Assembly (NCBI GenBank): GCA_043803945.1
Contig: JAZDJN010000038.1
Coordinates: forward strand, 1 to 64,000
Reading direction: 5' to 3'
Source: a bacterium
Lineage (GTDB): Bacteria > Bacteroidota > Ignavibacteria > UBA10030
DNA length: 64,000 nt
The notes beneath the pieces were generated by a model, which was given only the letters and a program-made list of their open reading frames with translations, made no database searches and was not told the DNA's origin. Positions 60,766 to 64,000 of this stretch are shown here, piece by piece. Numbering within the stretch: position 1 is the first letter of the stretch; every line of letters begins with the position of its first letter. Position numbers and translations under genes: made by a program.

Positions 60766-61173
60766 ATGTTTGTTAGATACGCATTTCTTGCTGACACAGC
60801 TACAGCGGACGCTGGTGGCAAATTATATGCTATGGGGATTTTTGATAATATACTGACCACCCAATTCCCTGCTCATCATCCCGAATTAACACTCGTAGCC
60901 AGAATTGAGGGAACTGTTGCAGAGAAGGGATCACATAAAATATCTATTGAATTGCGAGATAGCGATTCAAATAGACTTCATTCGTTCGATCAAACATTAG
61001 TTTTTAGCGAACGACCAGCAGTCCATGGGAATTTCTTGGCAGGATTAATTGTGAAATTCCAAACTCTAACTTTCCCACGAGCCGGCCAATATGAGTTCGT
61101 TCTTTTTGGGGACGATCGATTTCTAGTGCGAATTCATTTTACGGTGCAGAAAATTAACATCCAAAATGATTAA
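60766..61173 (+). CDS. DUF6941-like hypothetical beta-sandwich protein
   Basis: AFLAD.A....GKLY.MGIFD.I....FP; FP..G.Y.F. Confidence 0.7.
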   Translation: MFVRYAFLADTATADAGGKLYAMGIFDNILTTQFPAHHPELTLVARIEGTVAEKGSHKISIELRDSDSNRLHSFDQTLVFSERPAVHGNFLAGLIVKFQTLTFPRAGQYEFVLFGDDRFLVRIHFTVQKINIQND

Positions 61174-61175
61174 GT

Positions 61176-61466
61176 ATGAATGGGAGTTCCGCAAAAAAGT
61201 TGTTAGAAAGGATGCGAAACTCAAAGTCTGGGTGGGGTCAAAGTGACTTTCTTCATTTACTTAAAGGATTCGGATTTAAATTTAGAGAAGGTAGTAAGCA
61301 CACAGTTTATTTTCATCCTACATTTAACGATTTGATGATCAGCGTACCTAGGCATAACATTTTAAAGGAATGGGTAGCGCGCGATGCAATAAAACTAATT
61401 GATGAATTAATAGAACGATTGGAGAAAGAAGGGAAGAACAATGGAATCGATGGCAAGAACACTTGA
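61176..61466 (+). CDS. hicA: HicA-family mRNA interferase toxin
   Basis: LL..FGF..REGSKH..Y.HP......VPRH. Confidence 0.85.
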   Translation: MNGSSAKKLLERMRNSKSGWGQSDFLHLLKGFGFKFREGSKHTVYFHPTFNDLMISVPRHNILKEWVARDAIKLIDELIERLEKEGKNNGIDGKNT

Positions 61467-61812
61467 GTACTACAGGCGTCTACCATATAGGATGCAGATA
61501 GATCGAGTGCAAGATTCCGATGGAAGTAAATATTGGACAGCCGAATATATTGAACTCCGTGGTTGTAAGGCAGATGGGCCCACAGAACTCGATGCAATAT
61601 CAAATCTGCACGAGGTGTTTGATGAGTATATTTTAACGCAAATTGAAAACGGTATCAGCACACCTGAACCTGCGCAGGTTCCACTCATTGTTGATTCCAT
61701 CTGGCTAAAACCGTGGAAAGAAACATCTTTTCTAATGCCTACACCTCCTGGAGTAGATACCGATAAAACAGGGAGTGAAGCAGCAATTGAGTCTGTTTAC
61801 GCTCCGTTTTAA
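61441..61812 (+). CDS. hicB: HicB-family antitoxin lacking a recognisable DNA-binding domain
   Basis: YY..LPY, ELRGC.ADG.T..DA..NL, PEP; overlaps hicA. Confidence 0.82.
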   Translation: MESMARTLEYYRRLPYRMQIDRVQDSDGSKYWTAEYIELRGCKADGPTELDAISNLHEVFDEYILTQIENGISTPEPAQVPLIVDSIWLKPWKETSFLMPTPPGVDTDKTGSEAAIESVYAPF

Positions 61813-62119
61813 ATCATAGATGATTAATATGCGAAGCCTATTATCGAATGAAGATAATGGGCATTTCTGTCTCATCCCTTGTCTTTTATCCATCAAGCAC
61901 AAATCGATAGACCTTCAACGAAGTAATTTCTCTACAATAAATAATCAGAAATAGTGCCCCCTCTCAAAAAAGGTCCTATAAAGGTCCTTGACTTTCTTGT
62001 CCCGAAATAGGCATTAGCACACGGAGCAAGAGCTTCATCACACCCCCCTGCGATTCTTCCCTACCTGTGCATAAGGGGGAGCCGGAAGGGCTAAAGGAGA
62101 AACGAATTGCAGAGGGTTA

Positions 62120-62220
62120 ATGTCGACCACAATTTCCACAGCCGAACCAACACAATTTCGAGCGGATGATACCGTCAAGTGGACGAAGTCTCTCTCCGAC
62201 TATCCTGACTCCGAAGGTTT
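62120..62220 (+). pseudogene. Possible fragment of a phage head-completion-type gene
   Basis: MSTTISTAEPTQFRADDTVKWTKSLSDYPDSEG with RBS gaggg, ending at a REP-like element; similarity recalled from memory. Confidence 0.35.
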
Positions 62221-62221
62221 A

Positions 62222-62305
62222 TCTCGTTCCCAAGCTCCGCTTGGGAACGTAGGTCTTGAAGCTCTGCTTCCATTTAGGTGTTCCCAAACAGAGTTTGGAA
62301 ATGAG
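62222..62305. repeat. REP-like element (cgttcccaagctccgcttgggaacg family)
   Basis: Hairpins cgttcccaagc/gcttgggaacg, gaagc/gcttc and ttcccaaac/gtttggaaa. Confidence 0.75.
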
Positions 62306-62355
62306 GTTTTAACTCAGAACTACCATTTTCACAAGTGTTGTCTAAAAGAAAAATA

Positions 62356-62480
62356 TGTCTCGCCTGCGAACGCGGGGACGACAAGAATATGTCTCACTCG
62401 CGAAAGCGAGTGTCCAGTGCCTTTACGTGCCCACTGGTCTTTTTTCAAAGCGCTGGGTCCCCGCTTGCGCGGGGACGATA
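62356..62480. repeat. REP-like cluster homologous to 9463-9554
   Basis: tgtctcactcgcgaaagcgagtgtccag ... ctgggtccccgcttgcgcggggacga. Confidence 0.75.
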
Positions 62481-62499
62481 AACAGTGTGTCACTCCTTA

Positions 62500-62868
62500 C
62501 TACTGCACCGGCTCAGGCACTTTGAGCACTTCGTCGATAATCTGCTTTAGGTTGTTCTTCGGCAGGGCTCCAACCGCCATTTGGGGTTGACCCTCTTTCG
62601 GTATGAAAAGCAAAGAGGGGATGCTCCGGATACCAAAGGCCGATGCCAGCTCCTGCTCTTCTTCGGTATTCACTTTATAGAAGTTGACCGATCCGGTATA
62701 TTCCTTCGAGAGTTCATCAATCACCGGGCCGACAATCCGGCAGGGGCCGCACCATGGTGCCCAAAAATCGATGACAGCAGGAAGCTCTCCGGCATACTTC
62801 CACTCTTTATTTTTCTCATAATCAAAAACTTTTTCTTGAAACGCCTGTTTTGTTAAATGTTCTGCCAT
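62500..62868 (-). CDS. trxA: Thioredoxin
   Basis: DFWAPWCGPC, IRSIP. Confidence 0.93.
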   Translation of the reverse strand: MAEHLTKQAFQEKVFDYEKNKEWKYAGELPAVIDFWAPWCGPCRIVGPVIDELSKEYTGSVNFYKVNTEEEQELASAFGIRSIPSLLFIPKEGQPQMAVGALPKNNLKQIIDEVLKVPEPVQ

Positions 62869-63052
62869 ACCAGTTTCCTTTCTTCGTTTTTATTAATATG
62901 ATGCAGTGCAGGACCGAAAGGATTCACTCTGCAGGTCAGACTTTGTTGAATCCAATTAGGAATTCCTGCATCATAGCTATGGGAGAGTAGGTGTTCTCTG
63001 TTTCGTGGAGAAATGCATTGTTGGAGTAAGTCCGAATTGAATTGGAGTAGAG

Positions 63053-63697
63053 ATGAATACAATTGCAATAGAGAAACGATATTCTGAACTTGCAGACGAG
63101 GAATGCTGCCTCTCCTGTGGCGGGGCGATCGATATGAGTCACCCTGGAACGGGAGAGGTCTGTGTTGATCTCGGATGCGGTAAGGGAAGTGACGTCATCC
63201 GTTTGCGTAAGGCAGTAGGTGAAGGAGGGCATGTTTATGGTGTGGATATTGCCGACGGGATGATTGCGAAAGCGAGACAGCAGGTTGAAAAGTTTGGCTA
63301 TACGAATGTGACACTGATTCACTCTGAATTGGAACAGTTGCCGATTGAAAGTGATGCAGCAGATCTTGTCATTTCCAACTGCACCATCAATCATGCACAG
63401 AACAAACGCGCGGTCTGGTCGGAGATCTTCAGGATTCTAAAAATGGGCGGACGAATTGTGGTCAGCGATATTTATTCAATGAAACCGGTGCCGTCGGAGT
63501 ATGCCAACGATCCGGAAGCGGTTGCAGAATGTTGGGCCGGTGCAATCACGAAGGATGAATATTTGAACATTCTCCAGCAAACAGGATTTAAACAGATTAG
63601 TATGATAGAAGAGAGCAAGCCATATGAAAAGGGGAAAATTGCAGTAGCAAGCTTTACTGTATCAGCAAAAAAGTCAACGTGTTGCTGCGGTTCCTGA
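63053..63697 (+). CDS. ArsM-like (arsenite methyltransferase family) SAM methyltransferase
   Basis: CCLSCGG, DLGCG.G.D, VISNC.IN, AECWAGA, C-terminal CCC. Confidence 0.85.
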   Translation: MNTIAIEKRYSELADEECCLSCGGAIDMSHPGTGEVCVDLGCGKGSDVIRLRKAVGEGGHVYGVDIADGMIAKARQQVEKFGYTNVTLIHSELEQLPIESDAADLVISNCTINHAQNKRAVWSEIFRILKMGGRIVVSDIYSMKPVPSEYANDPEAVAECWAGAITKDEYLNILQQTGFKQISMIEESKPYEKGKIAVASFTVSAKKSTCCCGS

Positions 63698-63728
63698 CCG
63701 GAACCGTGCAATCAGAAAGGAGGTCGCA

Positions 63729-63824
63729 ATGAAATCTCTTATTAAGAAGAACACGAACACCTCACCATGCGCGGCACAGTGTTGCGCAAAGAATTCAAAA
63801 AACGTAGCTGGCTGTCACGACTAA
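63729..63824 (+). CDS. 31-aa Cys-rich peptide, candidate RiPP precursor
   Basis: MKSLIKKNTNTSPCAAQCCAKNSKNVAGCHD; strong RBS aaaggaggt. Confidence 0.75.
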   Translation: MKSLIKKNTNTSPCAAQCCAKNSKNVAGCHD

Positions 63825-63872
63825 TAAACAATTTCTCACCATCACTATGGCTTTGCTTTCTTTAATATAACA

Positions 63873-64000
63873 ATGGAATTCTCACAACATAATATCTTTT
63901 CACGAATCGCGGATTCTGAAAACTATTTCATTGTCAATCTCCTCTCAGGGAATGCGGATATCCTCGCTCCGGAAAAGGCACAAGAGATCATCGATAAACG
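63873..64000 (+). CDS. 5' fragment of a probable radical SAM/SPASM peptide maturase
   Basis: MEFSQHNIFSRIADSENYFIVNLLSG resembles the N-terminus of SPASM proteins; CxxxCxxC lies outside the window. Confidence 0.5.
   Translation, partial: MEFSQHNIFSRIADSENYFIVNLLSGNADILAPEKAQEIIDK

Follow-up and report, generated by a model that had tools for sequence, protein, structure and literature searches.

Gene organization of the locus

The window analysed here is a stretch of 64,000 nucleotides (nt), positions 1-64000 of contig C38 (JAZDJN010000038.1), from the 5.5-Mb genome of an Ignavibacteria bacterium (GCA_043803945.1); the contig continues to position 73028. Its last part, 62500-64000, holds four features, namely a thioredoxin gene, a methyltransferase gene, a 31-codon open reading frame (ORF) that encodes a Cys-rich peptide, and an open frame that starts at 63873 and runs past the window end. 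The gene order on the contig is methyltransferase, peptide, radical S-adenosylmethionine (SAM) protein and thioredoxin-thioredoxin-reductase (Trx-TrxR) fusion, and the window ends inside a four-gene operon (Table 1). The peptide, the radical SAM enzyme with its SPASM cysteine pattern, the ArsM-like methyltransferase and Trx-TrxR are strictly associated. The pairing of the peptide with the radical SAM/SPASM protein as precursor and maturase, of the type known from ribosomally made peptides that are modified after translation (RiPPs), is well supported.

A first-pass annotation, made from the nucleotide letters and their translations, had read this region as a candidate arsenic-linked RiPP system. 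Every feature that it described lies where it was placed, including the thioredoxin gene diverging from the cassette, which is identified by Pfam PF00085 (E 3.7e-25) and by TIGR01068 (111.9 bits, cut-off 96.8). That reading survives in part: a RiPP-type peptide and its maturase are borne out, and the arsenic link is not.

Table 1. Features at the end of the window and directly beyond it
Feature	Position	Strand	Evidence
Thioredoxin with WCGPC, 122 aa, diverging from the cassette	62500-62868	-	Pfam, TIGR01068, RNA-library contig
Intergenic region between the diverging genes	62869-63052	.	RNA-library contigs end at 62891 and resume at 62981
Compact ArsM-like SAM methyltransferase, 214 aa	63053-63697	+	NCBIfam, structure alignment, family alignment
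Shine-Dalgarno sequence AAAGGAGG	63716-63723	+	Five bases 5' of the peptide ATG
Precursor peptide MKSLIKKNTNTSPCAAQCCAKNSKNVAGCHD, 31 aa	63729-63824	+	Conservation, codon variation, complex model, RNA-library cover
Peptide leader motif, residues 1-8	63729-63752	+	Conservation and modelled maturase contact
Peptide invariant core, residues 16-31	63774-63821	+	Conservation; variable basic linker between leader and core
First 42 residues of the 437-aa radical SAM/SPASM maturase	63873-64000 in the window; gene end at contig 65186	+	Profiles, alignment
Trx-TrxR fusion, 430 aa	Contig 65190-66482, past the window end		Pfam/NCBIfam

Conservation of the precursor peptide

Conservation was followed in the best 80 of at least 588 species-representative loci, collected in searches that began from the radical SAM gene. 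The peptide is 30-38 amino acids (aa) long across its copies. It opens with the conserved MKSL(I/V)KK, continues through a basic stretch that varies and closes with the invariant A-Q-C-C-A-K-x-S-x-x-x-x-G-C-H-D-stop. In 78 copies, the invariant residues are specified by two to five codons each: both codons are used for Cys, His, Asp, Gln and Lys, four each for Ala and Gly, and five for Ser. Since synonymous codons vary under invariant residues, selection acts on the peptide as a protein and not on the DNA. Direct ORF reading finds the peptide in 77 of the 80 loci and in one more (L044) where a contig end cuts it; such recurrence, together with the synonymous variation under fixed residues, argues that the ORF is no chance frame. 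A tblastn search by itself matched the peptide in 59 of the 80 loci. Two loci (L020 and L036) have no upstream DNA. The conservation pattern shows that the 31-aa peptide must be translated and is under strong protein-level selection. No Pfam or NCBIfam family matches it.

The peptide had been described at first as carrying four cysteines behind a strong ribosome-binding site. Both the peptide and its site stand; only three of the cysteines are conserved, the first, in an SPC triplet, being variable. GGAGG-like sites are found 5' of the peptide in Ignavibacteria and Spirochaetota loci and are absent in Bacteroidales loci.

Structure of the radical SAM/SPASM protein and its modelled interaction with the peptide

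Extension of the contig has shown that the 42 residues visible in the window, taken earlier for the start of a SPASM-like maturase, belong to a 437-aa protein in which both the CX3CX2C motif and the SPASM cysteine pattern are present. The Pfam Radical_SAM model matches with 64.6 bits (cut-off 29.5), and Fer4_12 is matched as well. The CX3CX2C motif is C92-N-F-S-C96-S-Y-C99 (CNFSCSYC) and does not vary among the 24 family members aligned. The SPASM motif takes the form CX9-15GX4C ... CX2CX5CX3C ... C and goes with two auxiliary clusters. Its counterparts in the present protein, C331, G344xxxxC349, C388xxC391x5C397x3C401 and C417, are all invariant columns among the same 24 members, the first spacing being 17 rather than 9-15.

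The best NCBIfam hits of this protein are all SPASM peptide maturases and all lie far under their cut-offs: CefB (NF038107) with 142.6 bits against 600, TIGR04463 with 114.8 against 525, PapB (NF047865) with 104.9 against 340, and SCIFF (TIGR03974) with 72.1 against 425. Neither the MftC and PqqE models nor those of ArsL and ArsS appear in the top 25 of its 67 NCBIfam hits. Among solved structures CteB (5WGG, E 3.9e-19) comes nearest, with anSME next. The ESM Atlas gives generic 'radical SAM' cluster names only, and no match to a profile of the RiPP recognition element (RRE) or of PqqD was obtained. Its relatives number in the thousands, the best 120 showing 57-83% identity; one hit is to a cultured carrier, named Spirochaeta isovalerica by NCBI.

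The input to a model of the complex comprised the alignments of maturase and peptide together with SAM and three 4Fe-4S clusters. Three runs gave complex scores of 0.86, 0.87 and 0.87, as against 0.11, 0.00 and 0.00 in three controls; 58 of 80 solved complexes and 2 of 110 mismatched pairs attain the pass mark of this score. The runs share at least 44% of their contacts, and the predicted local distance difference test (pLDDT) value of the partner is at least 45. Confident contacts join peptide residues 1-8 with maturase residues 19-20, 26-31, 35, 49 and 53, and with 317-323 and 428-435. In the model, the conserved MKSLIKK segment would lie on a strand of the N-terminal domain of the maturase, as a leader does on an RRE, which supports the pairing without proving it. 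The part of the maturase encoded in the window includes the strand modelled against the leader. The pairing of peptide and maturase is well supported because the downstream gene has proved to encode a radical SAM/SPASM enzyme and because the peptide is conserved alongside these genes, two points on which the first-pass proposal had hung; the complex model adds to it.

Distribution and linkage of the four genes

A scan for the radical SAM gene in one genome per species gave at least 598 pattern matches, of which at least 588 encode a relative. The 80 best-matching loci are spread over Ignavibacteria, Bacteroidales and other Bacteroidota, Spirochaetota, Bacillota and one deltaproteobacterium. 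The methyltransferase gene lies 5' in 75 of the 80 loci, and all five loci that miss it have less than 250 nt of upstream DNA. A Trx-TrxR match is present in all 80 loci, some of them cut by contig ends, and in three (L022, L030 and L061) the gene stands 5' of the methyltransferase. Among 40 close relatives of the source genome, weak and unrelated radical SAM matches only are found, in four; since these relatives are without the family, its distribution is patchy.

A second survey started from the peptide. A degenerate DNA pattern for its core gives one match in each of five carrier genomes. In 301 genomes sampled from one Bacteroidota order, the pattern occurs in 44 genomes and its reversed control in none, and the radical SAM family (E <= 1e-80) in 46, with 43 genomes having both. 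Two of the three genomes with the radical SAM gene alone bear a variant peptide, ALCCAK...PGCHD, in the usual place, and in the third the radical SAM gene begins at a contig edge. Once variants are counted, radical SAM protein and peptide occur together in 45 of the 46 radical SAM-positive genomes. Altogether the cassette or the peptide is found in 47 of the 301 genomes, and one of them (G143) has a second, orphan copy of the peptide.

A relaxed pattern scan of metagenome contigs found at least 120 stretches; 80 loci were examined, and 60 of them have usable flanks on both sides. The methyltransferase stands upstream and the radical SAM gene downstream in 46 of these 60. The radical SAM gene is downstream in three further loci, once with a different methyltransferase, MT2, upstream and twice with another gene there; in six the methyltransferase is upstream and another gene downstream, and in five both flanks are other genes. 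Most of the exceptions belong to a lineage of high G+C content (0.65-0.74; L105, L119, L134, L138, L142, L148, L168 and others), which is known from tblastn only. Its peptide, MK(L/M)LTKP..CCAPE..AQCCAKASRLVSGCHD, has an extra CCAPE motif, and its gene order is methyltransferase, peptide and Trx-TrxR, with a radical SAM gene, 38% identical, on the other strand (L168) or upstream (L142). Since all four parts persist after this rearrangement, the high-G+C lineage gives the strongest sign that they work together.

MT2 is a class I methyltransferase of about 200 aa that has a His-rich motif, lacks the ArsM cysteines and belongs to no specific family. It lies directly 5' of the peptide in L088, L089 and L092 and occurs in the flanks of 4 of the 80 genome loci and 5 of the 80 metagenome loci. 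In two of these places (L088:5996-6726 and L089:5268-6403) the peptide directly 3' of MT2 is an orphan with no radical SAM gene nearby, these being the copies of genomes G143 and G338; one orphan is followed by a thioredoxin gene and the other by genes for a small Cys protein, a Fur-type protein and a peroxiredoxin-type protein, these three being judged by eye. The leader motif is still conserved in the orphan peptides.

The methyltransferase and the question of arsenic

The best NCBIfam match of the methyltransferase is the arsenite methyltransferase model NF008823, with 187.4 bits, under the cut-off of 263, over model positions 59-234 of 272, and the best solved structure is CmArsM (4FR0/4KW7, E 1.7e-24). 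In the structure alignment C22, C110 and C160 fall on C72, C174 and C224 of CmArsM, in agreement with the original description of an ArsM-like gene with three cysteines of the arsenic-binding type and with CC and CCC ends. The family alignment comprises 68 of the 73 cluster members, five having been dropped for a size outside 190-260 aa. All 68 retain C22, C110 and C160; taken position by position, C18, C19, C22, C37, C110 and C160 are retained in 66-68 members, and the tail has Cys in 53 of 68. The invariant motifs are CCLSCGGA, C37, SNC (C110) and ECWAG (C160), joined by a Cys-rich C-terminal tail. The invariant C18-C19 pair stands three residues before C22, outside the aligned region, and is an uncertain counterpart of C44, the fourth, N-terminal cysteine of ArsM.

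According to PMC6138428, ArsMs have four conserved cysteines, with C174 and C224 as the metalloid-binding ones; their preferred substrate, As(GS)3, is acquired through three thiol transfers, and thioredoxin reduces the disulfides that result. By analogy, a peptide with three cysteines and a private Trx-TrxR may fit this chemistry, and the idea of a peptide carrier is chemically reasonable. An arsenic-specific system is possible, but we regard it as unlikely. In such a system the three-Cys peptide would bind As(III) in the manner of As(GS)3 and hand it to the ArsM-like enzyme, or the radical SAM enzyme would build an As-C bond on the peptide. By both family and structure ArsM is the closest match, and the enzyme retains the cysteines that bind the metalloid; the dedicated Trx-TrxR matches the disulfide cascade of ArsM (PMC6138428), the CC...C arrangement of the peptide would resemble a tri-thiolate site, and ArsP_1 permease clusters lie nearby in 2 of 81 loci. 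However, ArsR, ArsB, Acr3 and ArsC are all missing from the 25 Pfam families that occur most often in the 150 nearest other ORFs. The source genome also has, far from the cassette, a canonical ArsR-family gene followed by a gene for a 271-aa ArsM (L212:3625-4811, contig C70; NF008823, 351.2 bits) and an acr3 gene on contig C87. With that ArsM the cassette enzyme shares only 34% identity; it lies under the NF008823 cut-off, and the models of the arsinothricin ArsM (NF040538, 98.5 bits against a cut-off of 500) and of the arsenosugar ArsM (NF038099, 72.9 against 400) are missed by far. Moreover, MT2, without these cysteines, replaces the enzyme in L088, L089 and L092. The fact that two unrelated methyltransferases occupy the slot beside the peptide points to the peptide, and not free arsenite, as the shared partner. 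The arsenic-linked reading of the first-pass annotation thus has no support other than the resemblance of the methyltransferase to ArsM, which is the one pointer to arsenic.

Thioredoxin system, neighboring genes and transcription

In full-length copies of Trx-TrxR, the CPPC and CATC motifs are each present in 72 of 74. The genes that recur near the cassette, counted over 81 loci, encode thioredoxin (22), DUF1847 (19), DUF6132 (17), DUF302 (13), an SQR-like flavoprotein (9) and a NapH-like FeS protein (8); OsmC, YceI, AhpC and DsbD-type proteins are also found there. The regulators vary, with Crp in 9, a sigma-54 activator in 9, MarR in 8 and an ECF sigma factor in 5 of the 81 loci. Judged by their families, neighbors and regulators appear to be of the redox or stress type. 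The 25 Pfam families found most often in the 150 nearest other ORFs include no RiPP protease or exporter.

A link to selenium was rejected: selD scores above its cut-off in 22 of the 47 genomes that have the cassette or the peptide and in 109 of the 254 that do not, and hence is not enriched, these counts having been made by hand on related genomes that are not independent. Selenocysteine variants were likewise rejected, there being no in-frame stops in the best radical SAM and Trx-TrxR hits; the sole in-frame stop, in the methyltransferase hit of L077, is the true stop of the gene.

On contig C38 a further group of genes lies 3' of Trx-TrxR, at 66839-72795 (L002:4839-10795, where L002 denotes the same contig region with its position 981 at window position 62981). 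First comes a regulator of the MerR family whose C-terminus is rich in Cys, and next a PhsA/PsrA-like molybdopterin oxidoreductase (517.7 bits, against a PhsA cut-off of 694); 4Fe-4S and NrfD subunits, two halves of the YeeE/YedE type and a rhodanese make up the rest. In L036, too, the cassette has a homologous MerR gene and one that is YeeE-like on its 3' side.

The operon appears to be transcribed in groundwater. One groundwater metatranscriptome run contains 0.85 of the sampled words of the operon, and contigs assembled from this RNA library cover L002 1-891 and 981-2123. The second of these, of 1164 nt and with zero differences, spans the methyltransferase gene, the peptide gene and the first 250 nt of the radical SAM gene. 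It begins at window position 62981 with a loose adapter and GGG end, which hints that this is a 5' end. Cover is patchy over L002 2096-4459, and depth is 0 in the bins of L002 4785-10672 except for 0.2 in one bin, so that the MerR and molybdoenzyme group is essentially uncovered. Since these adjacent genes are silent, the cover argues for RNA and against contaminating DNA as its source. No sigma-70-like site was found in 62869-63052; a promoter and terminator scan of the operon gave fewer sites than shuffled sequences and none at the start of the RNA contig.

Upstream of the cassette, the window has about 550 nt (61955-62499) without a convincing gene, with short direct repeats at 62349-62408 and at 62371-62384 and 62468-81. 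This stretch lies under an RNA-library contig at a depth equal to that of the thioredoxin gene and could be a long 3' untranslated region of that gene or an unannotated RNA; Rfam gives no match at E <= 0.1 in 61500-64000. Further upstream, two overlapping small genes at 61176-61812 give weak matches, under the cut-offs, to a HicA toxin (25.0 bits, cut-off 27) and to a UPF0150/HicB-like protein (20.5, cut-off 27.3) and may, by this likeness, be a toxin-antitoxin pair. A gene for a DUF6941 protein (103.8 bits) lies at 60766-61173, just 5' of the HicA-like gene.

Plausible mechanism of the cassette

The cassette is probably, although with no great confidence, an intracellular module for thiol chemistry and methyl transfer that is centred on the peptide. 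In this scheme the N-terminal recognition domain of the maturase would grip the MKSL(I/V)KK leader and the enzyme would modify the invariant C-terminal core, AQCCAK.S....GCHD, the likeliest modification being a Cys-derived thioether cross-link, as made by its nearest relatives; QhpD, NxxcB and PapB make non-alpha thioethers, according to PMC10114670. The methyltransferase would then act on the peptide or on an atom that the peptide holds. A thiophilic atom (As, Sb, Se, Te or sulfane sulfur) held by the Cys3-His set of the peptide is a tentative first choice for its target; a residue of the peptide itself comes second, as a further possibility, and a free small molecule is the more doubtful third. 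The CPPC/CATC Trx-TrxR would keep the cysteines of peptide and enzyme reduced at the expense of NAD(P)H. Because no protease or exporter is conserved, the product presumably stays in the cell, where it would serve a response to thiol-redox or metalloid stress and not act as an antibiotic.

Several observations weigh against such a module. The Pfam SPASM model PF13186 does not match the radical SAM protein at E <= 0.001. A genome of unknown completeness (G338) has the peptide and another methyltransferase with no radical SAM relative at E <= 1e-15, and three low-G+C metagenome loci have no radical SAM gene within 1.3-5 kb downstream; the maturase is therefore perhaps not obligatory. The complex model places only the leader with confidence and leaves the core unplaced, and its score may echo the solved complex of CteB with its leader. 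The proposed type of reaction is predicted from likeness to relatives against whose family models the protein scores far under the cut-offs. A thioether would also consume thiols that a carrier needs. The RNA evidence consists of assembled contigs of one run, which are strandless and give unreliable levels, and the sister RNA runs X2 and X3 show nothing, which is no evidence of absence.

The same features could be read, by analogy with mycofactocin and PQQ, as those of a precursor of a cofactor or small thiol, in which a tailored GCHD would be released and then recycled by Trx-TrxR. The peptide is short with a C-terminus invariant across phyla, which is unusual for antibiotic RiPPs, it has a radical SAM/SPASM partner and no conserved exporter, and a dedicated reductase is always present; the maturases of PQQ and mycofactocin are among the founding SPASM members (PMC10114670). 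However, the cassette has no conserved peptidase that could free a small product, the whole 16-residue core region is conserved and not its tip alone, and no user enzyme is conserved beside the cassette. We consider such a precursor rather improbable, more so than the arsenic-specific system.

Two remaining explanations are very improbable. For a ranthipeptide or sactipeptide of the ordinary kind, secreted as an antimicrobial and with the methyltransferase as a tailoring enzyme, the leader-core layout would fit and the nearest relatives of the maturase do form thioether RiPPs, but no transporter, protease or immunity gene is conserved, the core is invariant over several phyla instead of being diversified, and the regulators and neighbors are of the stress or redox type. 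An unmodified mini-protein that binds metals or thiols through its invariant C, C, C and H, a set that may resemble a metal site, with the radical SAM enzyme acting on some other substrate, would suit L088, L089 and the three low-G+C metagenome loci with no radical SAM gene nearby, but radical SAM protein and peptide occur together in 45 of 46 genomes, the leader motif is conserved even in the orphans, and the model sets the leader on the maturase by a wide margin over the controls.

Returning to the peptide-centred thiol and methyl-transfer module, there is a more speculative version of it, which we put forward tentatively. A stripped-down ArsM might methylate a metalloid or chalcogen on a Cys3-His scaffold that is tailored by the radical SAM enzyme and serves as a template, with Trx-TrxR resetting the thiols; or the peptide might give rise to a new thiol cofactor of anaerobes, which are assumed here to be without glutathione. 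If it is true that the peptide carries a metalloid or chalcogen, this would change how anaerobic methylation of As, Se and S is read from metagenomic arsM-like genes. The radical SAM reaction is directly testable because its substrate is short, invariant and easily synthesised.

Comparison with known systems

Like CteB/SCIFF, PapB, QhpD, CefB and TIGR04463, the cassette maturase has a radical SAM core and the full SPASM cysteine pattern. It shares with maturases of the CteB/SCIFF type an N-terminal domain that would hold the leader, as modelled here, and a short Cys-rich peptide encoded directly upstream. It differs in scoring far under every curated cut-off, in having a peptide that falls into no known precursor family and whose core does not vary across phyla, and in its fixed partners, which are the ArsM-like methyltransferase and Trx-TrxR and not a protease or exporter.

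The methyltransferase shares with ArsM/AS3MT, and with CmArsM in particular, the equivalents of C72, C174 and C224 and finds there its best family and structure match, and the thioredoxin-type reductant of ArsM (PMC6138428) is paralleled by Trx-TrxR. In contrast to the 272-380 aa of ArsMs, the cassette enzyme has 214 aa and lacks about 58 N-terminal and about 38 C-terminal model positions. Its N-terminal Cys pair stands three residues before the C72 equivalent, as against about 28 in ArsM, and C37 is an extra invariant cysteine. It is also under the family cut-off and without ars context, in a genome that has a canonical ArsM elsewhere.

An ArsM-type gene beside a radical SAM gene is also found in the ArsM-ArsL pair for arsinothricin and the ArsM-ArsS pair for arsenosugar. 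In the cassette, however, the methyltransferase falls far under the models of those pathways and the radical SAM enzyme is a SPASM peptide maturase; the ArsL and ArsS pathways are not known to involve a precursor peptide. Mycofactocin (MftA/MftC) and PQQ (PqqA/PqqE) have a similar peptide of about 30 residues, an invariant C-terminal motif, tailoring by a radical SAM/SPASM enzyme and intracellular use, which is offered as an analogy in the possible mode of action; the cassette differs from them in having other partner enzymes and neither a conserved peptidase nor a separate RRE protein.

No NCBIfam or Pfam model that would name the maturase or the methyltransferase specifically reaches its cut-off, and the peptide has no match among them. 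No description of it was found in the searched literature, supplementary genome-mining tables being outside the scope of that search, and QCCAK has 0 occurrences there. The cassette is nevertheless common, with 47 carriers among the 301 genomes sampled from one order and at least 588 matches in species-representative genomes, and is strongly conserved across phyla, yet it is unnamed in curated models and in the searched literature. It belongs with the radical SAM/SPASM systems of peptide maturation, among which it is set apart by its unusual fixed partner set, and it joins such maturation with ArsM-type methylation and a built-in thioredoxin system, fields that were previously apart.

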